Assembly: GCA_951406725.2 (NCBI GenBank)
Contig: OX597817.1
Location: forward strand, 133,920,001-133,984,000
Reading direction: 5' to 3'
From: Octopus vulgaris
Lineage: Eukaryota
DNA length: 64,000 bases
The position numbers and the translations under genes were made by a program. The notes beneath the pieces are model-generated. The model worked only from the letters and a program-made list of their open reading frames with translations. It was not told where the DNA came from and made no database searches. Each line of letters starts with the position of its first letter. Position 1 is the stretch's first letter. This document shows positions 2,323 to 52,141 of this stretch, piece by piece.

Positions 2323-2613
2323 GACATAGATATAGATAGATAGAGAGAGAGAGAGAGACATATGTTTATATATATGTTTATATAATAGAAATATTAAAAT
2401 AACTAAGTCTCTCTAAAAGAGAACAGCGGCAGCGTTCCCGGAAAATAATAGTTATCGCCATACTAATATGGCATTCTTATAAAAATAAGAGAAAAGCTGT
2501 CCGCTTATTAGCTCCATGAGGCCATCGCCTTAAGTTAGCTATTTGATACACAAACTGTATCCATATAACCTTCGAACAAGGGAGGTCAGTCGCTCCACAC
2601 TACTTGACCGGCA

Positions 2614-2655
2614 GCTACAGACGCGTTTCGGGGTATTGCCCCTTTTCAATGCAGC
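2614..2655 (-). ncRNA. Type I hammerhead ribozyme, U3:A8 variant
   Basis: Reverse complement: GCUGCA UUGAAAA GGGG-CAAUA-CCCC GAAA CGC GUC UGUAGC. Confidence 0.8.
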
Positions 2656-2920
2656 GTAGCCAGCCAGTAGGTGTCGCTTCCGACAATCTCTGTTCGATGG
2701 TTTTATTTACCTAGTTTCGGTGGAATACATCCACTTGTTTTCAATAATAGAAATATTAAAATAACTAAGTCTCTCTAAAAGAGAACAGCGGCAGCGTTCC
2801 CGGAAAATAATAGTTATCGCCATACTAATATGGCATTCTTATAAAAATAAGAAAAAAGAAACTAGGTAAATAAAACCATCGAACAGAGATTGTCGGAAGC
2901 GACACCTACTGGCTGGCTAC

Positions 2921-2962
2921 GCTGCATTGAAAAGGGGCAATACCCCGAAACGCGTCTGTAGC
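2921..2962 (+). ncRNA. Type I hammerhead ribozyme, U3:A8 variant; predicted cleavage after C2956
   Basis: Stem I gctgca/tgtagc extended by tggctggc/gccggtca; core TTGAAAA; stem II gggg/cccc; GAAA; palindromic stem III acgcgt; GUC triplet. Confidence 0.8.
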
Positions 2963-3282
2963 TGCCGGTCAAGTAGTGTGGAGCGACTGACCTCCCTTGT
3001 TCGAAGGTTATATGGATACAGTTTGTGTATCAAATAGCTAACTTAAGGCGATGGCCTCATGGAGCTAATAAGCGGACAGCTTTTTTCTTATTTTTATAAG
3101 AATGCCATATTAGTATGGCGATAACTATTATTTTCCGGGAACGCTGCCGCTGTTCTCTTTTAGAGAGACTTAGTTATTTTAATATTTCTATTATTGAAAA
3201 CAAGTGGATGTATTCCACCGAAACTAGGTAAATAAAACCATCGAACAGAGATTGTCGGAAGCGACACCTACTGGCTGGCTAC

Positions 3283-3324
3283 GCTGCATTGAAAAGGGGC
3301 AATACCCCGAAACGCGTCTGTAGC
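3283..3324 (+). ncRNA. Type I hammerhead ribozyme, U3:A8 variant
   Basis: Identical to 2921-2962, one 362-bp period downstream. Confidence 0.8.
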
Positions 3325-3499
3325 TGCCGGTCAAGTAGTGTGGAGCGACTGACCTCCCTTGTTCGAAGGTTATATGGATACAGTTTGTGTATCAAATAGC
3401 TAACTTAAGGCGATGGCCTCATGGAGCTAATAAGCGGACAGCTTTTTTCTTATTTTTATAAGAATGCCATATTAGTATGGCGATAACTATTATTTTATG

Positions 3500-12805: not shown

Positions 12806-14930
12806 CACATATATATATATATATATACACACATAATCTCTTCTGATGTTGCAAACTTCATGTTACTGTCTTTCTTTTAAGAATATGTTAAATAATTCCT
12901 ATAGTACTTATATTAAACCGATTATATGAAACAAACGAGTTAGCGAGGAAGTTGGTATGTCGTGTAGCGTCACCAGTTAGAAATAACTGCCCCTTTTCAC
13001 TCTTGGATAATTGTATAATATTGTCTTTCTGACAAGAAGACGAGATCGTTCAGGCTTCATTGTCTCGAATTATCAGTCTACTGGGTCTGCATCAGTCACC
13101 ATCTGGAAACTAAAGTAGAATGTGTGAATATCTACATTGTCGCATGTTAACTTTATAACAGTAATGAGATACTAGTAATTATCACGAGACATATTTTCTT
13201 TTATATTACAGCGTTAACCTGGAGATTTTCAGCAGGAGACAATTTCGCTTATATTATAATTGTGCTCATAAATTGGTTGCTTTTGTTATTGTGTGGAATA
13301 AGGTTAGCAAACTTATAATCAGAGGAGTTCCAGTCGTGACTACGCTATATCTTTACCTAATACAGTCTAGCTAGGACTACCATATTCAATGTGAATTTTC
13401 CTCTCTTTATAAAGATAGTTGTGTGTTATATGACGGAGATTTCTAAGTAGAACGTGGGCCTGCATAGTCTCTCTCTCTCCCTCTCTTTCTCTCTCCATCT
13501 CTTTCTTTCTCCCCCCCTCTCTCTCTCTTTCTCTCTCTACTTTGACACACGTTTTTTTTAATAAGTTGGATGTAACAGTGTTATGTATGTAGGTTCCTCA
13601 TAATACAACTGCAACAATCTCCTCTGACGACTTGATTATGCAAATGTCATGGCCTTTCGCTTCTCTCACATATTGTCTTTTGCATGATGAAAGCTAGATT
13701 AGCGCAGAGAAGATAATCTTGATAAGATATAATAATGGCTTTTGCAATAACATTTGTGGGAAAGTTCCAAATGTTGTTGTCTCGATATTTTATATGACAT
13801 GAAACGAAATGAGAAATCGGTTAAATTATGCTGAGTTATTCAGGTATCGGGGGCTTCCATAAAATACAAACATAACAAAAAGTGAAACATACAGTAATAT
13901 GGATGTTGCGATAGACACAAGCAAAGACCCCATGGCTTAATTCTCTTCGTCGCCGCATATTACATACATGTTATTATTATTGAGTGAGAAAGCAATGCAT
14001 GCCATCAAAGTGACACTAGGGTACAATTATACAAAGTTCAGTATGCCCATCATGACTACCCAGGTACACACATCACAACCATATGTGCGTGACATGGTGA
14101 TCTCATATCAAGATAAACAGCACATGATCTTGCAGGTGGGGGCAGTTAGAATTTTCTTCAGGTCAAGTATCCCATCCCGCTCAAAATCTCCCTTAATAAG
14201 GTTTATTTAAGGATGTTGAACGAAACAGCCATGTTTCCATGGGTGAACTATTCAAACCCCAAAGAATTCCTATCAACATACGACTATGATTCTCCCCCAG
14301 TACTCCTGAGCACATGCCATGCGAGTGACAATGGGTACAAACATGCGATGCCCAATACACCCATCATGACTACCCGTCTACCAGACACATGCATCAAAAC
14401 CACACGTGCGTGACATAGTGATCTCATATCAAGATAAACAGCACATGACCTTGCTGGTGGAGTCCAGTTAGAATTTGCTTCAGGTCAAGAAGCGCATCCA
14501 GATGATGATCAAAACACCCATGTTTTCACGGGAATTTTTCAAGCCCCACAAAATTCATCTCAGCACTTGGTTATGATACTCCCACAGTATTCCTGCTCGT
14601 GATCAGAGGTGCACATATCGTCAGCCACTGAGGGACATGCTCAACTAGTTAAGGTTAAACAACTGACTAGCAATTCCGTGGTATTGAACAGAATATGATA
14701 ACACTTCCAATCAGTTAAGATCAGAGGCCATGAGAACCACTGCCTGGTACTGCATCAAGACATTTATTACAGAAGCAAATTTCAGTTTTGGTCTTATTCC
14801 TGGTAGGATTTATGTGGTAGCAGGTTACTACATGTAACCTTAGGTACCCACACGTTTTCGGCAGTTTTTTTAAAGTGCTTAAAACCCTTCTGATTATTAA
14901 TATTATCATTATTTATTTATTTATTTATTA

Positions 14931-15002
<72 letters not shown>

Positions 15003-15007
<5 letters not shown>

Positions 15008-15832
15008 TAGTTTTATTTTTTTCACGTGCTTTCACTTCACTACCGGGTGCAGCTCTGTGTGCCTTGGGTATGTGCCTGTGATTTGTTGTGATGCTCTGAT
15101 GGTTACTGTACTGAAAGTGTTCTGCGTAGGATGTGTGCAGTGCCTAGTAGTGCAATTATTATTAGTATTAGTATTCAGTAGTTTTATTTTTATAGTGTGC
15201 TTTCACTTCACTACCGAGCGCAGCTCTGTGTGTCTTGGGTATGTGCTGTGATTTGTTGTGATGCTCTGATGGTTACTGTATTGAAAGTGTTCTTCGTAGG
15301 ATTTGTGCAGTGCCTAGTAGTGCAATTTTCTGTATGTTATATGTGTTTGTAAGTCCTGGTGTTTTTGTTATGTATTTGTCGGAATATTTTTTTATCATAC
15401 TTAATGCGCCTACTATGATAGGAATTGTTTCTGTTTTTAGATTCCACATTCGAGTTACCTCTATTTCCAGGTCTTTGTATTTTGAAAGTGTCTCCATTTC
15501 TTTTTGAGAAACGTTGTCATCTGCTGGTATTGATACATCAATTAGAAAGCATTTTTTCTTCATGATCTCTGACAACTATATCTGGCCTATTGGCCTTAAT
15601 TTATCTATCTGAGTGTATTGGCACATCCCAGAGTATGGTTGCTTTTTCGTTTTCTGTGACCTTTTCTGGTGTCTGCCTATACCATCTGTTTTCTGTTGTT
15701 ATTCCATAGTGTTGGCATAGCTTCCAGTGTATGTAGGTCCCAACTCTGTCGTGTCTGTGAATATATTCCTTCTTAGCCAGGACTGGGCAGCCAGAGATAA
15801 TATGATTTATTGTTTCTTGTCCAGCTCCACAT
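15003..15832 (-). mobile_element. Two 5'-truncated Dong/R4-like copies (15003-15160 and 15172-15832) in (TTA)n
   Basis: CGAGQETINHIISGC...KKCFLIDVSIPADDN...IQKIALLGTAQILRRTLSIQ*; 3' end ...aaactactgaa(taa)n. Confidence 0.9.
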
Positions 15833-15891
15833 ATTATTATTATTATTATTATTATCATTATTATTATTATTATTATTACTATTATTATTAC

Positions 15892-16920
<1,029 letters not shown>

Positions 16921-17230
16921 AAATTTGCCGCGATTTATTCCTAGCGTCCCCTCCCCCTCCCCACTACAAATATAGACCACTTTCTGCAGCTAATTCAAGA
17001 CAACTGAATTTCACAAATAAAACTTAAACCTAATTAACCTATTAATATAGTTTTTCATCTATAACCTCATTTTGACCACTTTATTATCATCCCCCTTTTC
17101 TTCAACGCCCCCAGGGGTCACTTTGAGTTTCTATTTCTTTTGGTAGCTATGTTTCTGGGCATAACTGTTTAGTGATGTTTTAAACTGAGTGACTAATTTC
17201 CTCCTTTTTATATTCGTTTTTGAGAAAAGT

Positions 17231-17440
17231 CGGTGGGCTGGCAGAAACGTTTGTATGCCGGGCGAAATACTTAGCTGTATTTCGTCTGCCTTTACGTTCT
17301 GAGTTCAAATTCCGCCGAGGTCGACTTTGCAGTTCATCCTTTCGGGGGTCGATAACTTAAGTATCAGTTGCATACAGGAATTGATCTAATCGACTAGGCC
17401 CCTCCACCAAAATTTCGGGCCTTGTACCTAGAGTAGAAAA
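17231..17440 (+). mobile_element. tRNA-derived SINE, family A
   Basis: gggctggcagaaacgtt...gttcaaattccgccgaggtcgactttg. Confidence 0.75.
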
Positions 17441-17951
17441 GACATTCATTTGTGAGGAGTCGCTTTGTTTTTGTTTGGTAGCGGCGTCGCTCGTGACACG
17501 TGTTTTTCTTTTATTTTCTGTGTGTCATGTAGGCATTATTTATGTTGCATGTACATATTATCACGTGCTCATGGATGCATGGACAGTTGCATGTATAGGT
17601 AAGTTTTCAATTTACGTACTTACTGTGTATTAGTGCGTTTTTCCATGGTTCCGAGAGCTGGTTTCGACGTCGTGTGTATGTCACATTGAGATATCACGCA
17701 TTTAAGAAAGAACATACACTGCATGTAACAAAAATCTTCCCCATTTTTAGTTCCATTACTTTAACAGGACTTTTCCCATAGATGTATCGCGAAGTTTTTC
17801 TTCCATTGCACCGATGTTATTGGATTAATATTGTTTTGTGGGGAGAGATTCTTAGTGTAGGTCCATATTCTTATTTAGCCCGAAGCTATTCTTATCATCA
17901 TTCTTCTTTTTCTTTCGCCCTTGTGGCAAATAAATGAAATCATCATCATCG

Positions 17952-17999
<48 letters not shown>

Positions 18000-18019
18000 C
18001 ATCATCATCATTATTATTA

Positions 18020-18066
<47 letters not shown>

Positions 18067-18077
18067 GTTATTATAAT

Positions 18078-19360
18078 TCAGTAGTTATATTTTTATAACG
18101 TGCTTTCACTTCCCTACCGAGCGCAGTTCTGTGTGGCTTGGGTGTGTGCTGTGGTTTGTTGTGATGCTCGTATGGTTACTGTACTGAAAGTGTTCTGCGT
18201 AGGATGAATGCAGTGCCTAGTACTGCAATTTTGTGTATGTTATATATATTTGTTAGTCCTGGTATTTTTTTTTTAATGTATTTGTCTGAATATTTTTTTT
18301 TTATCATACCTATCATACTATGGTAGGAATTGTTTCCGTTTTTAGATTCCACATTGGAGTTACCTCTATTCCCAGGTCTTTGCCTTTTGAAAGTTTCTCC
18401 ATTTCTTTTAGAGAAACGTTGTCATCTGCTGGTATTGATACATCAATTAGAAAGCATTTTTTCTTCATGATCTCTGACAACTATATCTGGTCTGTTGGCC
18501 TTAATTTCTCTATCTGTGTGTATTGGCATATCCCAGTGTATGGTTGCTTTCTCGTTTTCTGTGACCTTTTCTGGCGGGTGCCTATACCATCTTTTTTCTG
18601 TTGTTATTCCATAGTGTTTGCATAGCTTCCAGTGTAGGTCCCAACTCTGTCGTGTCTGTGAATATATTCCTTCTTAGCCAGGACTGGGCAGCCAGAGATA
18701 AAATGATTTATTGTTTCTTCTCCATCTCCACAGATTCTGCATTTACTTGTTATGTTTCTTTTCATTATATGTTTTTGGTAATTTCTGGTGGGGAGACTTT
18801 GGTTTTGTGCTGCAATTAAAAATCCCTCTGTCTCTGCTTTGAGTCCTGAGCTTCTCAACCATTGCTTAGATTTTTCTCTGTCTATTTCTTTTGCGTTTAG
18901 TTTAGCCCAGTATTTGCCATGAGGGTGCTTTTCTTGCCATCGTTTTATAATGGTCTGTTGCTGTTCTAGTTTTAGTTTTGATTTCATATGTTTTATAACT
19001 TTTGTTGTTGTTTCTTCTTCTTCTTCATATTTGTTAGGTAGTATGACTTCTTGTTTGTATTTGTCAGCTTCCTTAAATACTGAAAACAGTATTTTGTTTT
19101 GCTCGTGTTTTGTGGCTATTTCTATCAGTTTTTCTTGCTTCTGAAGTAGGTATTTTTGCAGTCTTATGATGGTTATTGTATAATAGTTTTCCAGCTGTAT
19201 AAGGCTTCTACCACCTTCTATACGTTGCATATATAGCCTTTCTATGTCAGATTTTGGCTGGTGCATCCTAGATCCTGTCATGATTTTTCTTGTTTTCCTG
19301 TCTATTTTGGTTAGTTCATTTAGTGTCCAGTTAAAGACTGTTGTACTTAAGGATATTGTC
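18078..19360 (-). mobile_element. 5'-truncated Dong/R4-like retrotransposon (thumb, CCHC, RLE)
   Basis: ORF 18604-19281: RLYMQRIEGGRSL...WLRSSGLKAETEG...CRICGDGEETINHFISGC; between (TTA)n tracts. Confidence 0.9.
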
Positions 19361-19448
<88 letters not shown>

Positions 19449-19452
<4 letters not shown>

Positions 19453-22400
19453 TAGTTTAAATTGTATAGTGTGCTTTCACTTCACTACCGAGCGCAGCTC
19501 TGTGTGTCTTGGGTATGTGCTGTGATTTGTTGTGATGATCTGATGGTTATTATATGGAAAGTATTCTGCGTAGGATGTGTGCAGTGCCTAGTAGTGCAAT
19601 TTTCTGTATGTTATATGTGTTTGTAAGTCCTGGTGTTTTTGTTATGTATTTGTCTGAATATTTTTTTATCATGCCTAATGCACCTACTATGAAAGGAATT
19701 GTTTCTGTTCTTAGATTCCACATTGTGGTTACCTCTATTTCCAGGTCTTTGTATTTTGAAAGTTTCTCAATTTCTTTTAGAGACACGTTGTCATCTGCCG
19801 GTATTGATACATAAATTAGAAAGCATTTCTTTTCTTCATGATCTCTGACAACTATATCTGGTCTGTTGGCCTTAATTTCTCTATCTGTGTGTATTGGCAC
19901 ATCCTAGAGTATGGTTGCTTTCTCGTTTTCTGTGACCTTTTCTGGTGTGTGCCTATACCATCTTTTTTCTGTTGTTATTCCATAATGTTGGCATAGTTTC
20001 CAGTGTATGTAGATTCCAACTCTGTCATGTCTGTGAATATATTCCTTCTTAGCCAGGACTGGTCAGCCAGAGATTAAATGATTTATTGTTTTTTCTCCAT
20101 CTCCACATATTCTGCAGTTACTTGTTTTATTTCTTTTCATTACATGTTTTTGGTAATTTCTGGTGGGGGGGGCTTTGGTCTTGTGCTGCAATTAAAAATC
20201 CCTCTGTTTCTGCTTTGAGTCCTGAGCTTCTCAACCATTGCTGGGATTTTTCTTTGTCTATTTCTATTGCATTTAGTTTAGTCCAGTATTTAACATGAGG
20301 GGGCTTTTCTGGCCATCGTTTTATCATGGTTCTTTGCTGTTCTAGTTTTACTTTGGATTTCCATTGTTTTATAGCTTTTGTTGTTTCTTCATCTTCTTCT
20401 TCTTCTTCATATTTGTTAGGTGGTATGATTTCTTGTTTGTATTTGTCAGCTTCCTTAAATACTGAGAACAGTTTTTTGTTTTGCTCGTGTTTTGCCGCTA
20501 TTTGTATCATTTTCCCTTCCTTCTGATGTAGATATTCTTGCAGTCCTATGGTGGTTATTTTATTGTAGTTTTCCAGCTGTATAAGGCCTCTACCACCTTC
20601 TATACGTTGTATATATAGTCTTTCTATGTCAGATTTTGGGTGATGCATCCTAGATCCTGTTATTATTTTTCGTGTTTTCCTATCTATTTTGGTCAGTTCA
20701 TTTAGTGTCCAGTTAAGGATATTGTAGCTGTAACTTATAACTGGGACAGCTAAAGTGTTAATACCTATTATCTTGTTTTTAGCATTGAGCTGTTTTTAGT
20801 ATTGATCTAACTCGTCTATAATATTCTTTTTTTTATTTTCTCTTTCATTTGTATGTGTTGTGTCTTATCTAGTTCATGGATTCGTAAGTATGTGCAAGTT
20901 TGGCTTTGGTCTAATTCTTTTATTTCATTGGTTTTATCTAGTGTGATGTTGTTACTCTTAACTAGTTTTCCTCTTTTCATGGTTACTTTGGCGCATTTTT
21001 CTAATCCAAATTTCATATCTATTTCTTTGGTAAATCCATGCCAGCTGTTTGTCATTTGCAGCGTATAGTTTTAGGTCATCCATATATAAAATGTGGCTGA
21101 TCTTGCCGTAACATTTATATCCGCATCCAGTACTATTTAGCATATCAGATAGAGGTGACAGTGCCAAGCAGAAAAGGAGTGGAGAGAGCGTGTCTCCCTG
21201 GAATATTCCTCTTCTAATGGGGATGGCTTTGGTTTTTATGAGTCCCTCTTTTGTTTGGAGCTGTAGCACTGTTTGCCATTTATTCATAGAGTGTCCTATG
21301 AATTTTATGATTGTTGGTACTACTTTGTTAATGGCTAGTGTTTCGAGGATCCATGTGTGGGGGATGCTATCAAACGCCTTTTTGTAGTCGATCCAGACCA
21401 TACTGAGGCCTTTCCTCTTTCTGTGGCTGTCTTAAGTTATGACTTTATTAATCATTAGTTGATCTTTACAGCCATATGAGCGTTTGCGGCATCCTTTCTG
21501 CTCTTCTGGGAACAGGTTGTTTTCGTCCAGGTGCTTGTTCAACCTTTGCGATATCACTGCAGTAAATGCCATGTACATTGTAGGGAGACAGGTTATTGGT
21601 CTGTAGTTTCTGGTTTTGCTGTCTCATTTGATTTGAGAATTAAGATAATTTTCCCCTTCGTGAGCCATTCAGGCATTGTCTCTGGCTCTGCCAGTATGTT
21701 GTTAAAATTTTCAGCCAGCTTTTTGTGCATTCATGTTAGATATTTCAACCAGAAGTTGGGGATCTTGTCATGCGCAGGTTCCTTCCAGTTGCTTAGTCTT
21801 TGCAGTGCCTGGGTGACCGCTTCAGTTGTTATGGGGGTCCAAAGTTGCTCAGATGCTGAGTTTGTTGTTTTAATACTCCTTTTTTTGGTTGTTCGTTCGC
21901 CGACCATATTTCTCTCCAGAATTCTTCCACTTCTTCTGCCGTTGGTGCTGCAGTGATTTCTATTTTATTTTTGCCAAGTTCTTGGTAGAACTTTTTGTGG
22001 CTGGAGTTGAACTTTTTGTTTTGTTCAAAGAAGAACTGGCGTTTCTCGTACCGGCGGATCCTTTGTGCTTTGGCAAGGATATCTTGCTTTAGCTTTTCTT
22101 TTATCTCAGGTAAATCTTTTTCTGTGATGTTGTATTTGCGGAGTATTTTTGTTTTCTTTTTGTTGCTCAGTAGCGTTGATTGTCTACTGATTTCATTAAG
22201 AATCGACAGATCTTTTTTCATTTTTTGTATTTTGTTTTGGATGTTATTTATCCACAGGATTTGTTTGGGTGGTGGTACTCCTGTTTGGACGGGTTTGAGT
22301 GAGTATCCAGCTTCTTTTGTGACTACAGTGGCTGCTGCGTATACTAAGACATTTAGCTCAGTGATATCGCTTTTTGTTTCAGTGGCTATTAGTTCCGTGA

Positions 22401-22678
22401 CGGCTAGGTTTATGCTGTTTATAATTGGTGTTGTTGTTTCGTCTATTTTGATTTTTGGGAGGTATGGTCGGTGGTCCATTTTGAGCTCTGTGGTTTTCAG
22501 CTTTTTGATTATTCTACTTTTTATATTATCATAATCATTAGGCTCCCCTTCGTTGTTTCCAGGTTTTAGATTTGTGTCATTTTCTTTCTTATTTGTATGT
22601 TTGTTTATCGTGTTTTGGCTTGCTGTTTGTCGTGTATTATTATGCATCCTTACGTTCTGGGTTTGTTGTTTTTTGTTT
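19449..22678 (-). mobile_element. Near full-length but frameshifted Dong/R4-clade non-LTR retrotransposon (RT, CCHC, RLE)
   Basis: WIDYKKAFDSIPH, GIFQGDTLSPLLF and HILYMDDLKLY (RT); RPDIVV...SIP...KLSKY (RLE); inserted in (TTA)n as known for Dong. Confidence 0.92.
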
Positions 22679-22690
22679 CTTCTTCTTCTT

Positions 22691-22792
<102 letters not shown>

Positions 22793-24473
22793 GCAGGTGC
22801 TTAGCGCATTTCCTCCGTCTTTACATTCTGAGTTCAAATTTCGACTTTGCTTTTCATCCTTTCGGGGTCTTTAAATTAATTAACAGTGAAACATTGGGGT
22901 CGACTAGTCCTCACCCTCAAAATTTCAGGACTTGTGCCTTTAGTAGAAAGGGTTATTATTATTATTATTATTATTATTATTGTTGTTGTTGTTATTATTA
23001 TCATTATTATTGAGTGAGATAGCAGCGCATATCATCAAAGTGACACTGGGGTACAGATATATGAAGTGCAACATATCCATCATTGCTACCCGTCCGATAA
23101 GGGTACATAAGGAACATATACCACAACTATATGTAAGCAGTTCTTTTATACAATCCGTTGGCCTATAACCTGATTGTGAGTAGAATTAAACTCTCCTAAG
23201 TTGTAGCTTAAACATAGTCTTCCGAACGGTATTTCACTGCTGAATATATTACGTGTTATAAAGATGCGAAGGCCCTTTCGTTTGTTTCATATCGGTGACA
23301 CACTCTTCGTTGTCCATAAGTTTGTGATAGTTAGATAAAATGAATGTATATTAAAAACTAACTAATAAAACTAATAACCAGCATTTGAAATATGTTATCA
23401 ATTACAATATATATATCGATACGTTGTTTCAAGTGCTGTATAAACTTCAGAGAAAACCCAGCAACAATACGGAGTGTTTTATAGTGGAATTATTACTATT
23501 TTCACATCATGGTGTCTCTGGGAAGGAATAAAGAAAAACAAACAAACAAATAGAAATCTTTAAAAATAACACCAAAAGCAATAACTGAATAAAGATGGCG
23601 AGAACCATTCATTTTGGAACTTCCGCGAGAAATTACTCGCTGAGCTGTGAAGCTTGATAACTTAATCTCTTAAGGTTTCCGTAAATGTGTCTTCAATGAA
23701 AATTCTTTGAGAAAGATTTTGTTTTGTAGCAAGTTAAGGTTATCCATATTGTTGAAAGAAGCAAGACAATTATCAGCACCAAAGTTTTCGCGTTCTTTAG
23801 AAACTAGTCCCAGTGCAATTTCGCTTTAAATCAGACGCTTCGAAGATAATTCTAATTAATATTTTGGTTTCTGTCAACTGCTTTGGCTTCGAAATCTTTC
23901 ATCAAAAGAAAATGACACTTCCCCCACGTTTTCGTATTGTCTTTCCATTTTCTCACCCCTCTTATATTCTCCTATGAAGCTGTTTGGCAAATTTAAACTA
24001 TTTTACTTCTTGCAGTTTAGTGCGGGGATTGGCGGTTTTTGTTTTGTTTTTTGTTTTTTTACAGTGAACATTTTGAAATCACTTCACAGAATCTGTTGAA
24101 ATGGTTTTGAAATGTTTGTACTTTTCAAGATAGAACGCTGCAAAGTCGTTTGCGGGTCTATTTTTGTGTTTTTTCTTCATTTTTGTATTTTATGTTATAT
24201 TCAAGTCAGTCAGTTCAACTTCAGACGTGTTACCATAAACATAACTTCTTCAAGAGGTTTAACAATTTTAATGATATTCACCGCATCACAGGAATCCTCT
24301 TTTAAAACATTTCCAGAAGCATCAAGGAAATTAGTTGGTCCATAATAATTATAAAACAAGGTATCAACTTTACACTGAAATCAATTTAGAACAAATTAAT
24401 TAATTAATACATATTATATAATACTACGATTCATTTACGATGCACGCTTTTATAATTTGAATAAGGCCGCTAG

Positions 24474-26954: not shown

Positions 26955-28339
26955 TAAAAAAGGAAATGAAGAAAATGCTGACAAATAATTGAAGTAATTT
27001 AAGTAATTTAATTAGGTGAAAGTTCTTTTTACCGGTTGCGCATTTGTTATGCTTATCAAAATATAAAAGAGAGATTAGAGTCTGTCTCTTATATGTGAAA
27101 AAAAGAGGCTCCAGAGTTGTTTGGGATTTGCTTGGTTTCGCGCCTAAAATTTTGATTGGTCATTATGAAGGGGTCACGTGAATGTTTGAATGGAAGTTGG
27201 TGTTGGGGTAAGAAAAAGGCTCCAGAGAAGTTAAAATTTGGCTAGTGTCCCGCCTAAAATTTCTTATTGGCCATAATAAAGAGGTCACGTGAATGTTTAG
27301 AATTTTCGAAAATAGTGTTGTTGAAAATTCTTATTGTTCAGGCTGGTCAGTAGACGTCATGTGGATATTTTAAATAGCTTTTTAGCGCGTAGTTAGGGAG
27401 TGTATTTTCCGCTTGACTGAATAAGTAAGTTCGTTTAGAACAGGGAGAGCTGTATGTATGTATGTGTGTGCGCGCGTGCGCGCGTGTGTGTGTTTATATG
27501 TATGTTGGGGCGCGCGCGCGTGTATATATGTGTGTGTGTGTGGGTAAAATTTTCAATATTTATAGTTCTGCTGGCCTTGTGCCTGTATCGGGAAGCAACG
27601 TATTTGTGTGAAGTCAATATTTACAGCCATTTCCAAAAATAGTGTTGGATGTTTTGCACCCGTATTCAATTATGTGTATGTGTGGAACCATATATTTGTG
27701 TGTGTCATGGTGTTAATATCTGGGTAAAGGTGTGTGTAGGGTGTGTGCAGGTGTAAGTGTGTTTGTTGTGGGTTCGTGTTAGGGGCATGTGTTTAGAAGT
27801 GGTCTGTATTTATTAATAAGGTGGGATTCCATGGTTATTCGCTGGGTATGAGTGGCATTGTCTTTAAATTTGTAGAGGAGAAAGATTCTAAAATTGGGAT
27901 GGAGTTGTGCGGCACAGGTATCAATATGTGCACTAAATGCTATTTTTCTATATTCCTGTATTTTTATTTGGGATCTGTGGACAGTCATGCGTTGGCGGAG
28001 GCTATTTTTTGTTTGGCCTATGTAGTGTTCATTACAGCCCGAGCAAGTTAAGACATATACTAGGTTTTCTGATGCGCATGTGAAGTTGTGTTTTACTGTG
28101 AAACGTTGTCCTTGTTTAAAAAGGAATTCCGGACCTTCTATTAGGTTGATGCATATACCACAGTTGGGTCTATTGCATTTGTTTACTGTGGGTTTAGTTG
28201 TTGTGGTTGGCAGTACTTTGGCATTTGTTAGGATGGTTTTCAATGATTTGGGTTGCCTTTTGCTCTTTATGATTTCGTGTGTTAGGAGGATTTGGTTCAT
28301 TCTATGGTCCTTTTGTAATACAGGAATGTTCTGGAGTAC
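26955..28339 (-). mobile_element. 5'-truncated Penelope-like element (PLE) with 3' pLTR region ending in (TA)n
   Basis: GIY-YIG ORF, then 3' UTR with a duplicated ~90-bp CCAAT/E-box module (27101-27302) and a decayed hammerhead (~27024-27070). Confidence 0.8.
27779..28300 (-). CDS. Penelope-like element GIY-YIG endonuclease domain (partial)
   Basis: CNRPNCGIC...FTCASENLVYVLTCSGCNEHYIGQT...RMTVHR...HID...ESHLINKYRPLLN. Confidence 0.9.
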   Translation of the reverse strand: MNQILLTHEIIKSKRQPKSLKTILTNAKVLPTTTTKPTVNKCNRPNCGICINLIEGPEFLFKQGQRFTVKHNFTCASENLVYVLTCSGCNEHYIGQTKNSLRQRMTVHRSQIKIQEYRKIAFSAHIDTCAAQLHPNFRIFLLYKFKDNATHTQRITMESHLINKYRPLLNTCP

Positions 28340-28427
28340 CTCTGCAATCGATAGAAAGTCTCAGCTAACTAGAAGGTAAGCTGCCGGCTGACTGTATATC
28401 TAGGCAGTAGTTCGTATCACAGAACCA

Positions 28428-28496
<69 letters not shown>

Positions 28497-28595: not shown

Positions 28596-29634
28596 GTTCG
28601 TGCATACATATATTCTGCTTCGACCACATTCTTGTTTTTTTCTGGATCGGCATAAATGCATAGATACACATTTCATTCCACATTAGAGTATGTTCATGTA
28701 TGTATCTATGATTTGGTACATACCTGTATGATGTGTGTGTGTGTGTTTGTGTATGCACTGGATTCTATGTTTAGAATTAGGTTATACAGCAGGTATTGTC
28801 TACTCTACTGACGTTGAAGTGTAGTTCGATTTAACATCGGTCAAGTAAGAACTGTTGCGAACATTAAAGAATAAATCGATATCGGAATATTGGTAATTCC
28901 AGTGTTTGTTCCTGAAATATCTCCCTTTATAATAAGACTGCAGCTATATATCACTCGCATAAGAAAGCTGCTTATAGACTTTACCCACAATTCCTTTTCA
29001 TTCTTCTGCAATATTAAAGTACTTGGATATAATCAGTTGTAGTTTAATTGTTCTTTTAATACTCTCTACATGAAGTGTCTGAAATTCTTTCGACAGAGCA
29101 GAGCTTATGTCAAAGCAGAAAAACGTGATTTTATAAATATAACCAAAATGTCGATGTTACTGCCTGCATAAAAAAAAAACGTGATCTTAGACCATGATGG
29201 CGGGATTCGGTATTTTTTTTTTCTTTGGAAATCTTTAGGAAATGTCCAGTAATTTTTATTCGCCAAATTTTTCAAGTTTGTCTAAATTTAAACTCTGCAA
29301 TCGATAGAAAGTCTCAGCTAACTAGGAGGTAAGCTGCCGGCTGACTGTATATCTAGGCAGTAGTTCGTATCACAGAACCAATACTGTACTATGCCAGTGA
29401 TCAACTTAACAGCTCCTCATTGCTTTTGTCCATTTGACTTAAGATGACGAATTAGCAAGGTGATTAGAGGGTTGGGTAAAACAGAAGGCTTTGCAATATG
29501 TATTCCGACGATTTGAGTTCAACAACTTGCGACACCAAATTTGACCTCCAACCCTTAAATATACGATCAGTTTCTCTCAGAATCGATTTGTGGCCAAGAA
29601 AGAAGTTATTCCTCGCAGCCTCACTAATACTTAC

Positions 29635-34560: not shown

Positions 34561-35764
34561 TACACATTTTTTAATGAAGTCTTCATGCATGGTTAGGTAA
34601 TAAAGTTGACTTTGTACATCTCTAATCCATTTATCGATCCAAACTCTTCAACAGAGTCAATCATTGTTGTTTGGTGGCGCTTATTGTTGCAACCGGTTTT
34701 GGTACAGTTCTCAGTAAATTGCATTGCTTTCAAGTGCATCTGACCAGTAGTCAGACCAAATTATTACCTGTCGAAACCGTTTCTATCCACACGCTCAGTC
34801 CTTCAATTATAACATCTCCTATCAGATGTAGTAATAAAGGCCATTGATAATCATCTACTCAGAAAACCAATCAAGGCCTGGGAACTGCTGCAGTGACATC
34901 AGCAAGAACATGTCCCCGGAGAAGAAGATGACGGTTGCAGCTCCACCCGTTCGAAGAGCAGCACAGTGTGTAACTCCAATGATTACTAAAGCTTTAATAA
35001 TTCCCTTTGAAAAGGGAGCGAAATCGCCTCGACTCCAATACTCCGGCACTAAAAGCCATTACTCTTCTCCTCCAAACGCAGTAGTGGCCAGAGGATTTCT
35101 GTGGAATTACTAATCCACTCTGTTGCGGTCATGGGCTGGAGAGGACAACTAGAAAAGAGGATGAAACTACCCAAGATAAGAAAAGGAAGGAAAAATTATG
35201 AGTCAAAACAAATGAAAACAGGTGCCCACCACTACGGAATACTCAAACCTTTACAAGATCCGAAGTAGAAGCTTAATCTACTTTAAAGCTAGATCTGAAA
35301 TACGACGTATCAGTTATTGTGCTTTTTAAGGAGGAAATGAGAGATGAATACCAAGTCCTCAAAGATTATAGATGGTTAAAGAAGATCATGGTCTGGGTTT
35401 ATTATGTGGGGACACTCACGGCTCGACTAACACTGAAAATGCTTATGGGCAAACGAAATTGCTCACTGTGAAACCCGATTTGCAGACAGTGATCGTTACA
35501 AAAGATATGGCGCAGTGGTCCCTGAACCTACAATAATGTACTTCTCAGAAATGTCCAAGTTCACCCTATTTGTACCTTGTTTGTAGTTACATGTATTTGG
35601 TTAATACAAAACATTTTAATTAGGTAAGTACATTGTATTAGCATTTATTCCATCACTAACGTTTCTCGAAACGTAAAAGACTTTTTCATTTTTACCGAGC
35701 GTCAAATTAATACACTTGTTTGTTGTTTTTACACCTGTCTGAGCCTTTTTTTCTATAAATTTCA

Positions 35765-35991
<227 letters not shown>

Positions 35992-36477
35992 TGAATTCAC
36001 AGAAAAACAAAAGACGACGACAGGTGTATAAACAACAAACAAGTGTATTAGTTTAACACTCAGGAACGTCAGAATGTCTTTTACATTTCGAGTCTACGCT
36101 CTTCGACAGAAACGAACACGATGAAATAAACAGAGAACGAATAAAAAAAGGCTTTCGGTACACACACATACACATATTTTCTCTCCCTTTTTGTCTTTCC
36201 TTTTTTTCTCTACTTGTCGTTTCTGTGCCCCTTTGTGTAGTAGAGGGTAGGCTCGAAACGTAAAAGACTTTTTCTATTCCTGAGCGTTATACTAATACAT
36301 CTGTTTGTTTTGTACACCACCTGTCTTCGTCTTTTGTTTTTTTCGTAAACTCTCCCTATATATATATATATCAACAGGAGTTATGAGTGAGTTACTTAAA
36401 ATTTCATGCTCGGATGAGGCAAATATTGGACTGGCTTTAATAGCGTACCTTGCGAAATTTGGTATGTATTCGGACTC

Positions 36478-38818: not shown

Positions 38819-39566
38819 CTTTAACTCCCAGTTTTCCTCCTCGTTTATCTCCTGGTCTAAGAGTTGAAATCACGACCTCGCGATCGTAAGTCGAACACAC
38901 TGACCACTTACCCATGCATCTTCATGCTTCGTATTTAATAAAATGCAAGAATTTATAAACAGAAAGTGATACCTAACCCCAGAGACAAGCTGCTAGCACC
39001 AACTCCCCGTTACATAATTTTATTAAAACTAAAACTAAAAGATAAACTGGATGTATACACGATTAAAGGCAGCTCGTCTATAATTAAGATTTAAAACTCA
39101 AATTGAACATAAAAATTTATAGATAATAAAAGGTTCGCCCATAGAATAACCTTTTAGATGTAAAATTATGATCCAAATTGCAATTTTGCATGTTCAGGAA
39201 CAAATACAGAATTAGTTTTACAAAACAGCTACTAAAAGCGAATATCCTTTCATAACATTCATAGCATGCATAAACAGTTTGCCATCTTCACCACTACGAC
39301 AACAGAAAGAAACAACCAAATCAGTTAAAAGAATTTGTTCGTTCATTAAACGATGTTTACTTAAATAACCAACCTAAACATATAAAATATATACAATTCC
39401 AGATCACCTTTTCCTTCGCACCCCACTCCTGTATAGTCATAACTGACAAGGCTTTTCAACCGATTCCTATTGTAACGATGATTGTTGGAAGAATTAAAAA
39501 AACACAGAAATATAGTTGTTGCAATCAAATTTACATTGATTTTGCACGCATGCATGCACGCACGCA

Positions 39567-39734: not shown

Positions 39735-39800
<66 letters not shown>

Positions 39801-39963
39801 GTTATCGCCATACTAATATGGCATTCTTATAAAAATAAGAATAAAGCTGTCCACTTATTAGCTCCATGAGGCCATCGCCTTAAGTTAGCTATTTGATACA
39901 CAAACTGTATCCATATAACCTTCGAACAAGGGAAGTCAGTCGCTCCACACTACTTGACCGGCA

Positions 39964-40005
39964 GCTACAGACGCGTTTCGGGGTATTGCCCCTTTTCAAT
40001 GCAGC
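39964..40005 (-). ncRNA. Type I hammerhead ribozyme, U3:A8 variant
   Basis: Same as 2614-2655. Confidence 0.8.
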
Positions 40006-40325
40006 GTAGCCAGCCAGTAGGTGTCGCTTCCGACAATCTCTGTTCGATGGTTTTATTTACCTAGTTTCGGTGGAATACATCCACTTGTTTTCAATAATAG
40101 AAATATTAAAATTACTAAGTCTCTCTAAAAGAGAACAGCGGCAGCGTTCCCGGAAAATAATAGTTATCGCCATACTAATATGGCATTCTTATAAAAATAA
40201 GAATAAAGCTGTCCACTTATTAGCTCCATGAGGCCATCGCCTTAAGTTAGCTATTTGATACACAAACTGTATCCATATAACCTTCGAACAAGGGAGGTCA
40301 GTCGCTCCACACTACTTGACCGGCA

Positions 40326-40367
40326 GCTACAGACGCGTTTCGGGGTATTGCCCCTTTTCAATGCAGC
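40326..40367 (-). ncRNA. Type I hammerhead ribozyme, U3:A8 variant
   Basis: Same as 2614-2655. Confidence 0.8.
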
Positions 40368-40687
40368 GTAGCCAGCCAGTAGGTGTCGCTTCCGACAATC
40401 TCTGTTCGATGGTTTTATTTACCTAGTTTCGGTGGAATACATCCACTTGTTTTCAATAATAGAAATATTAAAATTACTAAGTCTCTCTAAAAGAGAACAG
40501 CGGCAGCGTTCCCGGAAAATAATAGTTATCGCCATACTAATATGGCATTCTTATAAAAATAAGAATAAAGCTGTCCACTTATTAGCTCCATGAGGCCATC
40601 GCCTTAAGTTAGCTATTTGATACACAAACTGTATCTATATAACCTTCGAACAAGGGAGGTCAGTCGCCCCACACTACTTGACCGGCA

Positions 40688-40729
40688 GCTACAGACGCGT
40701 TTCGGGGTATTGCCCCTTTTCAATGCAGC
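40688..40729 (-). ncRNA. Type I hammerhead ribozyme, U3:A8 variant
   Basis: Same as 2614-2655. Confidence 0.8.
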
Positions 40730-41210
40730 GTAGCCAGCCAGTAGGTGTCGCTTCCGACAATCTCTGTTCGATGGTTTTATTTACCTAGTTTCGGTGGAAT
40801 ACATCCACTTGTTTTCAATAATAGAAATATTAAAATTACTAGTCTCTCTAAAAGAGAACAGCGGCAGCGTTCCCGGAAAATAATAGTTATCGCCATACTA
40901 ATATGGCATTCTTATAAAAATAAGAATAAAGCTGTCCACTTATTAGCTCCATGAGGCCATCGCCTTAAGTTAGCTATTTGATACACAAACTGTATCCATA
41001 TAACCTTCGAACAAGTAGCTGCCGGTCAAGTAGTGTGGAGCGACTGACCTCCCTTGTTCGAAGGTTAAATGGATACAGTTTGTGTATCAAATAGCTAACT
41101 TAAGGCGATATGATATATATTTATTCTTATTTTTATAAGAATGCCATATTAGTATGGCGATAACTATTATTTTCCGGGAACTCCCAGAGAGACTTTAATT
41201 TTAATATTTC

Positions 41211-41246
<36 letters not shown>

Positions 41247-41337
41247 TTAACTCCCAGTTTTCCTCCTCGTTTATCTCCTGGTCTAAGAGTTGAAATCACG
41301 ACCTCGCGATCGTAAGTCGAACACACTGACCACTTAC

Positions 41338-41372
<35 letters not shown>

Positions 41373-48724: not shown

Positions 48725-49565
48725 GTATGTATATATATATATATATAAGATCCAGGTTTCCAGGTGTAGGAAGAAGGTTTAGCTTACAGCAATCTGTAGT
48801 GAATAAAAAAAAAATACTTTCAGAAACAATAATGGTTTATTGAGATGGAAATTTCCAGATTGTTTTTCTTTTATCGAAGAACGATGAGCTGGAACGAAGT
48901 TCTTTTTATATTCCTCGGTAGGCATCCAGAGTTGCCGAGTGTGCGAAAAAGAATACAAGGGTTACGAAATGGAGTGTGGGAAATCCAGGCTACATATGCT
49001 TCATAGCGAGTGGACCTACAGAAGTGGTAAGATCCATGTGAGGTGTATACCGTCGGCTACTCTTCAGGCCAAGGATTCTGACTGAAATCTTTGCGTCAAC
49101 ACGTACTTCCTTCCGACAATGTAGTCTTTAATCTAATTCAGATATTCTTGGCCCGCGGTATACACCTCACTTGGATTTTACCACTTTTGAGGTTCCACTT
49201 GCTAGCTTCCTAGGGCTAAATAGCGGTGAGTGATTCCCTTTACGGGACTGTCACGTTAAGTTGACAGTATACAACCGCTTTATCGTTCTACCACCGCTCA
49301 TATCTCTCTGAGATATTTAGAAATTTAATATTTCTAATTTCGGTGATCAGTGAATAAACTTCACTGAAAATATATATGTTTACGAAGGCTTTGCAAGCAT
49401 CTTCAGCTAGCAGGCCATGCTACTCTAAATTGTCACGTGCATCGTCAGAGTGTTGGTTTTTCTGAGTTGGCTTTGTGATATTGTGAGTACAGAACATTGT
49501 TATTGTCGAAAGTATTGTTATTGTTGAATTTTTGAAAATTGTTTCATTGCTACCCACTGTTGAGT

Positions 49566-50828
49566 ATGCAAACAGCAAGTTACGCGCAAGCAGCAGGTAA
49601 AAGCATGTCTGCCGACACGATGCAGTTAAAAGAGATAATAATCGAAAAGGGAAATCTGAAAAAAATATTTTGAAAGTTTTAAGAAGGAAGGAGATTGCCT
49701 TCGAATCACACCGCCGAAGGACGATGTAGAAAAAGCGGAGAGAAAGATCATTGTCTACAGAACGTGGAATGTAGCCACGAAAAATATAGAAGTGGCAGAG
49801 ATAGAAGACATCGAGGAATGTCTAGCAGAGATAAAAGATAGGACTACCTTCTACACAAGAGGAAGGAAGTTTGCTACCGTAGAAGTACGTTTTGAAAGTG
49901 AGGAAGAAGCTAAGAGACACGCTACTACGGTATTGAGAACAGCTAGGTGGATACTTCTACCTACCTATTGTGGAAAACAAGCAGCGAAAGTGAGAATAGG
50001 AAAAGTACCAACGGAGATAGATGTAGAAAGGCTGGTAGCAGCCATAATATACAATTGTAAAGAGGAGGTAGATATCCTCAAAGTTGAAAAATCAAGAGAC
50101 GTTAACTGGTGGAGTTATGATGTGGAAGCCCTGATACACATAACCCTGCCGGATTTACACATGATTGCAGAGGAGTTGATGCTACTCGACGAAACCCGAC
50201 TGAGAGTCGTGGTGGAGACCACCAATATGTTACAAATGTAAAAGTAGGGGACATATGCAAGCAAAGTGTCCCCTAAGAGAAGTGCAGGTGGAAGAGATGG
50301 AAATGTGCAGCGACGCAGCGAGAGAGTAGGAAAAAAAAGAAATAACGGCAGAAAGAAAGAGAACGAGGGTGGAGCCACCACCAAAAAGCTCCAAGAAGAA
50401 AAAAAACACCAGTAAGTGAAAAAGGAAGTACAGAGATTCGAACTCAGGAACCGAAGACAATGACAAAGAGTGAAGAAAATAAAGCTAAAAATAGGCGAAA
50501 TGCGAAGAATGGATGAGGAGAGCGAGTAAATTATGTAAGGCGAACAGGACGAGCTTTGGGACAGAATTTAAGAACGTTGATACTCTACGAAAAGAATATG
50601 GAAATAGAGAAAAGGTTAACCAAAACAAAAGGTTTGATAAGAGTAAAATTGGAACACGACATGTTTGAACCAAGCATTACAGCGGCATTAGTGGGACGAG
50701 AAAAAATGAAAAAACTAGTAGAGACATTCAAAGACAAGGTCAAATCATATAATATATATATTCGTTATGATAATCTGGCCAACGTGATTGGGCTGGAGGA
50801 CATAATAGAATATATAACAGATAGATAA
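49566..50828 (+). pseudogene. Frameshifted gag/ORF1-like nucleic-acid-binding protein (SYAQA motif, RRM-like region, CCHC zinc knuckle)
   Basis: MQTASYAQAAG...; ORF 49792-50241; shifted frame PICYKCKSRGHMQAKCP (CX2CX4HX4C) at ~50222-50272; basic tail and ORF 50556-50828. Confidence 0.75.
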
Positions 50829-51039
50829 ATAGAACGACTACAAACTGTATAAAGGAATTGTAAAATGAATCTGCGAGCTTGGGGGGATCGTAAGCCATTC
50901 CATTTTTCCATTACACATAACTCGTCTCATATTCATTATTTGTTATATGTACCCTAAATTTTGTATTGTTTGTATGTTATTGTAATATCCATTCTATATT
51001 CAGGCTACATGCCTATAATAAAGAGAAAGGCCATCATAC

Positions 51040-51085
51040 TCCAGACTGATGATGAGCAAGACTCAGAAACATGCATGTCTCTGGA
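51040..51085 (+). ncRNA. Canonical type I hammerhead ribozyme; predicted cleavage after C51079
   Basis: tccaga CTGATGA tgag-caaga-ctca GAAA catgcatg tc tctgga; palindromic stem III acatgcatgt. Confidence 0.88.
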
Positions 51086-51348
51086 TGCAGGCCTAGCTGT
51101 TGGGGGTGCTTGTCTCCCCTTCGTAACCATAAGAAAACAGGAAATGTGTCAAAGCCGACAGGAAGCGTCGATGCTTCCTAGGGCTAAATAGCGGTGTGGT
51201 GATTCCCTTTACGGGACTGTCACGTTAAGTTGACAGTATACAACCGCTTTATATATATATACACATATATATATATATATATATACATAAATACATACAT
51301 ATATATACATAAATATATATACATAAATACATACATATATATACATAA

Positions 51349-51400
<52 letters not shown>

Positions 51401-51480
51401 ATAAATATTAGGGAATAAATCCAAATTTACAAGGAAAAATCAGATTTAAGATTAAATCCAATTTTATAATAAAATATTAT

Positions 51481-51808
51481 ATTATAATAAATTAGAGGCA
51501 AAACCACTATTATGCAAATAAAACAAAGAAAGACTTAAGCCAATACATAAAATATAAAATAATTTATATAAATTAAAATTTAACAAATGAATAACCACTA
51601 CGATCGTGTGTCGATATAGGTGGTTTCTAAACATTCTTAACGTTAAGAATGTTTAGAAACCACCTGAAGAATGTCTAAGATGTGCTGACACGAAACGATC
51701 GTAGTGGTTATTCATTTGTTAAATTTTAATTTATATAAATTATTCTATATTTTATGTATTGGGTCTTTCTTTGTTTATTTGCATAATAGTTTTTGTCTCT
51801 AATTTATA

Positions 51809-51810
<2 letters not shown>
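51481..51810. repeat. ~330-bp imperfect palindrome centred at ~51641 between (TA)n tracts (inverted pLTR-like)
   Basis: ggtggtttctaaacattcttaa cg ttaagaatgtttagaaaccacc at the centre; arms match out to attataa... Confidence 0.85.
51658..51709 (+). ncRNA. Type I hammerhead ribozyme (A-C mismatch at the base of stem II); predicted cleavage after A51703
   Basis: aaccac CTGAAGA atgtc...gacac GAAA cgatcg ta gtggtt. Confidence 0.75.
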
Positions 51811-51840
<30 letters not shown>

Positions 51841-52141
51841 TATACATATATATATATATAAAATATATATACATAATATATATATATATGTATATATATA
51901 TTGTGGGTGTATATTTGTGTTTGTGTATTGTATATATATATATATATAACAAAGTCACTTTGATCCGTGTAGTAGAGGTGTTCTTAGAGGTAAAAGAATC
52001 CTTGTTTCTTTTCTGTCGAAGAGCGTAGGCTCGAAACGTAAAAGACTTGTTCTATTTCTATTCCTCAGCGCCATACTAATACATTTGTTTGTTTGTACTC
52101 CACCTGCCTTCGTCTTTTGTTTATTTTCGTTAACCTTCCCG

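Follow-up and report, generated by a model that had tools for sequence, protein, structure and literature searches.

Insertions of Penelope-like elements (PLEs) often contain an inverted 5'-truncated copy, carry a tail of 30 to 40 bp at only one end, and are biased toward (TA)n (PMC8557442, PMC3846280), and two papers still describe the origin of the inverted copy and the one-sided tail as unresolved (PMC8557442, PMC11167929). The purified protein of an Anolis PLE, which is predicted to form a dimer, was reported to cut AT-rich DNA in vitro, to extend both strands, and to accept uncut RNA (Frangieh 2024, PMC11167929). In the same study, the two positions within the RNA from which reverse transcription starts delimit the tail and have no homology to the cut DNA, and no difference in start site between the strands was observed in vitro. 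A U3-A8 core and a palindromic helix III are features given for the hammerhead ribozymes of PLEs (PMC4209133), and hammerheads of this kind are thought to be slow and to cut as dimers (PMC6765202).

Metazoan non-LTR retrozymes (Cervera & de la Pena 2020, PMC7229834; Li, Clavereau & Pollet 2026, bioRxiv 10.64898/2026.07.22.740005) are, like the octopus unit described below, noncoding tandem units of 150 to 450 bp (350 to 390 bp in mussel) with a GC content below 50%, a type I hammerhead in each unit, a strongly self-paired predicted circle, and PLEs in the same genome. In the portions of these two papers that were considered, mobilization by PLEs is deduced from the hammerheads in common, from the joint occurrence in genomes, and from the phylogeny of pLTRs, whereas the arrays studied here bear an insertion footprint; the word "inverted" does not occur in PMC7229834. 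Self-cleavage was observed for one of nine predicted elements, so the motif is no guarantee of activity (bioRxiv 10.64898/2026.07.22.740005). The case for the mobilization of retrozymes by PLEs has so far been built on indirect evidence. In LINE-1 elements, twin priming gives inversions with the 3' ends facing out.

Here we analyzed a 64-kb stretch of Octopus vulgaris DNA (the window) with two arrays of a 362-bp unit, located 37 kb apart and referred to as array 1 and array 2. We read both, with a probability of roughly 0.7, as head-to-head retrozyme insertions made by a PLE-like reverse transcriptase (RT)-endonuclease at a TA-rich cut from two fixed RNA start sites 63 nt apart. The element class and the PLE architecture are already known; inverted, tailed retrozyme arrays or the 362-bp family were not found in the open-access literature searched. 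As the architecture is textbook PLE, the case is of specialist interest more than a surprise.

The 362-bp unit and its predicted hammerhead

A tandem period of 362 bp, with 3.4 copies at 99%, was found in the interval from 39795 to 41216 (array 2). The unit was numbered from the base right after the predicted GUC cut (u1, window position 40331 on the minus strand), and the strand carrying the hammerhead was defined as its sense strand. Neither array contains an open reading frame (ORF) of at least 100 amino acids, and neither has the RT-GIY-YIG ORF that is the mark of an autonomous PLE. The sequence elements of a hammerhead (the core TTGAAAA, GAAA, and a GUC site) are present in the unit, as are a stem II of 4 bp and a stem III that is complementary to itself. 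A pattern search of the 64-kb window gave seven matches, six of which are the unit's own type I motif with a U3-A8 core, spread across the two arrays (Table 1), and one of which is a different motif; each of 10 shuffled controls gave none. At least two consecutive units each carry the type I motif. With Rfam, no match at the gathering threshold and no hammerhead match were obtained in the window, and a match of the unit to RT-2 (E value of 0.59) was treated as chance. The predicted circular fold of the unit is much more stable than the folds of shuffled sequences (z = -7.2). Taken together, the 362-bp unit fits the definition of a non-LTR retrozyme with a predicted hammerhead, although its core is the U3-A8 variant, unlike the cores of the retrozymes in the considered portions of the two studies (PMC7229834; bioRxiv 10.64898/2026.07.22.740005).

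The unit is dispersed and multicopy, with two loci in the window and contigs in all four public sequencing runs that were aligned to the unit at 40020 to 40381 (X1, X4, X9, and X18, out of 24 listed, with three organism labels). The numbers of distinct contigs aligned per run (2623, 1929, 1185, and 84) are not copy numbers, and the contig depth profile is unsuitable for ranking. That run X18 is RNA is no more than a guess, and it was not counted as evidence for expression. Pattern scans for further loci of the unit gave no hit in metagenome contigs, in GTDB, or in viral sequences.

A second hammerhead-like core is located at u238 to u280 (for instance, at window positions 3194 to 3236 on the plus strand) and starts exactly at the long terminus of the arrays. 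Its TTGAAAA and CGAAAC boxes are the same as those of the main motif, its stem I is off by one, and its stem II contains a mismatched base; it is probably a relic, judging from these features. The plus arm of array 1 begins at the GAAA of this core.

Table 1. Positions of the arrays, their hammerhead motifs and flanks, and other elements in the window
Feature	Position	Strand	Remarks
Array 1 left arm, 477 nt	2382..2858	-	u238 (outer, long/tail terminus) back to u124 (inner)
Array 1 right arm, 639 nt	2858..3496	+	u264 (inner) to u178 (outer, short terminus)
Hammerhead, array 1 left arm	2614-2655	-	Pattern search
Hammerheads, array 1 right arm	2921-2962, 3283-3324	+	Pattern search
PLE ORF 3' fragment, autonomous type (GIY-YIG, CX4CX2C linker)	27779..28360	-	Between TA tracts
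Putative donor of the 97-bp copy	38819..38915	+	(AT)n tract just before
(TA)n target tract, array 2 left flank	39737..39794	.
Array 2 long arm, 1221 nt, 3.4 head-to-tail units	39795..41015	-	u175 (outer 3' end, short terminus) back to u40 (inner)
Type I hammerhead (U3-A8 core, 4-bp stem II, palindromic stem III)	39964..40005	-	Pattern search
Type I hammerhead	40326..40367	-	Pattern search; predicted cut between 40332 and 40331
Type I hammerhead	40688..40729	-	Pattern search
Array 2 short arm	41015..41216	+	u2 to u238, two segments replaced
Tail u176-238, ends at long terminus	41171..41216	+	63 nt in intact unit, shortened here by deletions
(TA)n tract, array 2 right flank	41217..41244	.
97-bp exact copy of 38819-38915	41245..41341	+	TA tract on either side; candidate for a locally templated insertion
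Unrelated hammerhead-bearing element	51395..51815	.	Head-to-head layout between TA tracts; comparison case

Shared geometry and ends of the arrays

A previous sequence-only reading of this DNA had claimed that both arrays share a divergent geometry, with the 3' ends out, and the same two termini. Both claims hold in two of two arrays: the left part is minus sense and the right part is plus sense, and one outer end lies at u175 to u178 and the other at u238. The termini had further been described as ending in CTATTA and as being joined to TA-rich tracts. All four ends are indeed at this motif or no more than 4 nt past it, with the refinement that the motif comprises 7 nt (CTATTAT). For three of the four ends, a (TA)n run with n of at least 5 is no more than 4 nt away; as a background, 4.3% of all window positions fall inside such a run or have one at a distance of up to 10 nt. 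The fourth end, at 2382, adjoins a TA/GT-rich sequence that is imperfect, and the nearest pure run is 60 nt away. CTATTA occurs exactly twice in the unit (u169 to u174 and u232 to u237), and a 7-mer is shared by 9 of the 65,341 position pairs in the unit. The chance that array 2 would reuse both ends of array 1 to within 3 nt is about 7e-4. The presence of one short and one long end in both arrays is not significant (p of about 0.25 if the sites were used at random).

The right end of array 1 overshoots the motif, to u178, and is followed by a 7-nt spacer and then by (TA)n/(GATA)n. The flanks of array 1 share the order (TA)n-(GATA)n-(GA)n but are too dissimilar for a target site duplication (TSD) to be called. 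At the inner junctions of both arrays, a single nucleotide (G) is shared, and neither junction is palindromic.

That inverted terminal segments are characteristic of PLE insertions, as had been stated in the same reading, is supported by the published PLE-type architecture (PMC8557442, PMC3846280). Both arrays consist of an inverted 5'-truncated copy in head-to-head orientation and have two fixed 3' ends with a one-sided tail, and three of the four ends are next to a TA microsatellite. EN+ PLE insertions with an inverted pLTR and a tail, among which Neptune and Naiad show a microsatellite bias, likewise combine a head-to-head 5'-truncated copy and a (TA)n target with a one-sided tail and no clear TSD (PMC3846280, PMC8557442). 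In contrast to those insertions, the arrays are retrozyme arrays and contain no ORF, their tail measures 63 nt instead of 30 to 40 nt, the arms can be multiunit, and the junctions are nonpalindromic.

A survey of ends across copies had been proposed as a check and was run in part on the four public runs; it favors fixed ends, u238 more firmly than u175. Four of the 24 loose-end rows listed, out of 290 rows in all, are joined to (TA)n. Three of them are at 40094 (u238) and comprise 15 contigs in X1 (mixed, with a consensus agreement of 0.56), 10 in X9 (agreement of 0.97), and 1 in X18, while the fourth, a single contig from X4, is at 40155 (u177). Among the rows listed, the short end (u175 to u178) was found in only one of the four runs, and no TA-joined row at any other unit position is present among these 24 of the 290. 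The two ends look fixed family-wide. Head-to-tail joints were seen in all four runs, and among the six joints listed, there is one strand-switch joint, from run X4 (40206/40352, u126 to u342). This joint leaves the unit at u126, at the edge of a strong helix formed by u115 to u124 and 2 nt from u124, the inner end in array 1; u124 to u126 is a possible RT stop site (n = 2).

Proposed priming of two cDNAs and alternative explanations

Neither arm of array 1 is contained in the other, as the 477-nt arm would need a partner with 477 nt where 417 nt are available, and the 639-nt arm would need 639 nt where 337 nt are available. A simple fold-back is therefore excluded for array 1, and two RNA-templated syntheses are required there; this also makes an artifact of fold-back reads less likely. 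In array 2, the short arm is contained in the long arm, so this array does not discriminate between a fold-back and two primings. The twin priming put forward previously is thus retained for array 1 as far as two separate RNA-templated syntheses are concerned; annealing to UAUUA as the selector of the sites is not supported. As in LINE-1 twin priming, the 3' ends face out, and the plus arm of array 1 starts 25 nt past the priming site of the other arm, as expected from one RNA. Unlike LINE-1 insertions, the arrays show no priming at poly(A) or a T tract, the two priming sites are at fixed positions inside the RNA, and the arms are longer than one unit.

Based on these features, the following series of steps is proposed. 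In a TA-rich microsatellite, the two strands would be nicked by a PLE-like RT-endonuclease. Each of the resulting DNA ends would then serve to start reverse transcription at either of two fixed positions inside the RNA, separated by 63 nt. These start sites, each ending in CUAUUAU, would be set by the grip of the protein on the RNA, with primer pairing of no more than 3 nt. Each cDNA would then run back along a multiunit RNA and stop at a variable point, and the 3' ends of the cDNAs would be joined via 1 nt of microhomology, followed by fill-in. The product would have one short end and one end bearing the 63-nt tail.

The PLE literature offers a better account of the two ends, namely, that they correspond to the paired start sites of RT within the RNA by which the PLE tail is bounded. 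In the Anolis element Poseidon, there are likewise two internal start sites 3' of the hammerhead that bound the tail, as well as an AT-rich target; the Poseidon sites differ in being located in an AC-rich stem-loop, the first about 85 to 92 nt past the cut, whereas those of the octopus unit are at 175 and 238 nt and share CUAUUAU (PMC11167929). In place of the protein, (TA)n DNA ends could in principle select the start sites by pairing with UAUUA in the RNA, a homology-driven form of twin priming that would account for the presence of CTATTAT at both sites and for the TAT overlap with the flank at three of the four ends, a bulged TATATA/UAUUAU duplex being conceivable. However, the TT of TATTA is retained in the product and must therefore have been copied from RNA rather than supplied by a (TA)n primer, which leaves TAT, that is, 3 nt at most, in common with the flank. 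A match of at least 3 nt to a (TA)n primer is offered by 24 of the 362 unit positions, and the five positions that offer 4 to 5 nt (u56, u57, u142, u154, and u229) are unused, none of them being an end in the arrays or in the listed loose ends. In addition, the ends at u178 (array 1, right) and u177 (X4) are beyond the motif, and the start sites of the one PLE tested are reported to be without homology to the cut DNA (PMC11167929). We consider such pairing improbable as the selector; more likely, the 7-mer common to both sites indicates a position that is defined by the protein or by structure.

Equally improbable is a single priming event after which the cDNA would fold back and prime itself (Arkhipova 2013), the second end being produced by endonuclease resolution of the intermediate, as suggested by Craig (2021). 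Such models are published (PMC8557442, PMC3846280), the nested short arm of array 2 agrees with them, and the second hammerhead-bearing family in the window has a palindromic junction. Set against this are the nonnested arms of array 1, the nonpalindromic junctions of both arrays, and the match of the tail ends to RT start sites determined in vitro for the Anolis element (PMC11167929). Two independent single-ended insertions, either back-to-back in one microsatellite or one inside the other with a subsequent deletion, would be in line with the reported tendency of PLEs to land in or beside earlier copies (PMC6765202) and with the short arm of array 2, which is devoid of both strands of one helix, as in a distinct variant RNA. 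This is less credible still, given that a TA remnant is absent between the arms, that the arms of one array share alleles that differ between the arrays, and that the layout is repeated in both arrays and in the second family. An assembly chimera or fold-back read artifact is very improbable: the window's own junctions (2858 and 41015) are absent among the six joints listed from the other runs, and assemblies are known to have difficulty with the inverted structures of PLEs (PMC8557442), but the arms are not mirror images, with different start points and with deletions confined to one arm, both termini recur in independent runs, and the layout agrees with published biology.

A more specific version of the reading with two fixed start sites is conceivable but doubtful, namely, that the 362-nt RNA is a minimal cis-substrate of a dimeric PLE enzyme that would assign to each target strand its own CUAUUAU site, every full insertion then being an obligate two-cDNA product with a short end and a long end. 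If true, this would explain the inverted copy and the one-sided tail of PLEs together and would replace the self-priming model, and it would provide direct footprint evidence that PLEs, not LINEs, mobilize animal retrozymes. With a family that is young, abundant, and short and that has two sharp termini and multiunit arms, a single assembly is enough to test both questions, through a tally of the ends and of the overlaps between arms. For work in vitro, the 362-nt unit provides an RNA substrate of small size.

Template RNA, flanks, and other elements in the window

The sequence-only reading had also suggested copying of a circular or multimeric template, and a multiunit template of one sequence type is indeed implied by locus-private variants that are common to all units. 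In array 1, u219 is T in three of three copies over both arms, a variant that is not among 23 variant rows from the public runs. In the long arm of array 2, u117 is T in four of four copies, whereas it is C in 99.3 to 100% of the public-run contig depth; the samples and organism labels behind these frequencies are not those of the window, so the frequencies are suggestive only. The alleles common to the arms within an array and differing between the arrays are those at u128 and u219. The sharing of alleles within an array (u219T, u117T) is at most suggestive of a single insertion event per array. Five intact hammerhead sites are crossed by the long arm of array 2 and the right arm of array 1, and one more is crossed by the left arm of array 1; hence, the template RNA would have been an uncut multimer or a circle, with about even odds between the two. 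The start of the array 1 plus arm 25 nt past the other priming site and that of the array 2 plus arm at u2 speak for a single multimer, while the resemblance of the array 2 short arm to a structure-preserving deletion variant speaks for separate templates.

In this short arm, u97 to u124 and u187 to u205 are replaced by short fillers, and the losses take both strands of a predicted helix (u115 to u124/u187 to u195, with a pairing probability of 0.91 to 1.0). These deletions are absent among the six joints listed and among 24 of the 290 loose-end rows from the public runs. The arm begins 1 nt after the predicted ribozyme cut, for which the chance is about 5% over four arm ends; the position of u2 beside the predicted cut is taken as no more than a hint.

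The 97-bp piece in the right flank of array 2 is SINE-like and, besides the two copies given in Table 1, has no close copy in the window. A templated insertion that arose while the break at array 2 was being repaired is a possible origin of this piece. The sequence-only reading had expected an uninterrupted (TA)n at the empty site, and this expectation needs adjusting because of the 97-bp copy: if the copy stems from the same break repair, the empty site would join 39736 to about 41370.

An autonomous PLE that shares the 362-bp unit was not found in the window. The only PLE fragment present, at 27779 to 28360, which we take to be Neptune/Nematis-like, is 52% identical to one named relative. 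It has no significant similarity to the 362-bp unit (best E value of 0.78) and was therefore rejected as a demonstrated partner. A 92-bp piece at the 5' junction of the fragment (28340 to 28431) is duplicated 950 bp away, at 29293 to 29384, with 98.9% identity.

The unrelated element at 51395 to 51815 has a palindromic junction, and one of its arms is longer by an apparent extension of about 85 nt; the hammerhead stem II of this longer arm is replaced by a short filler. In the region from 49660 to 51252, remnants of two ORFs precede a hammerhead motif at 51046 (plus strand); the region ends at a TA tract, and its last 80 bp recur at 49205 to 49283 (97.5%). An older repeat family with 76 to 84% identity, the ends of which adjoin (TA)n, is represented at 35665 to 35761, 35994 to 36116, 36232 to 36356, and 52006 to 52140, with two copies facing each other over (TA)110 at 35769 to 35988. 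Finally, decayed non-LTR retrotransposon copies are located in tandem on the minus strand at 14925 to 22800, with (TTA)n runs between them and an RVT_1 match at 20961 to 21431.
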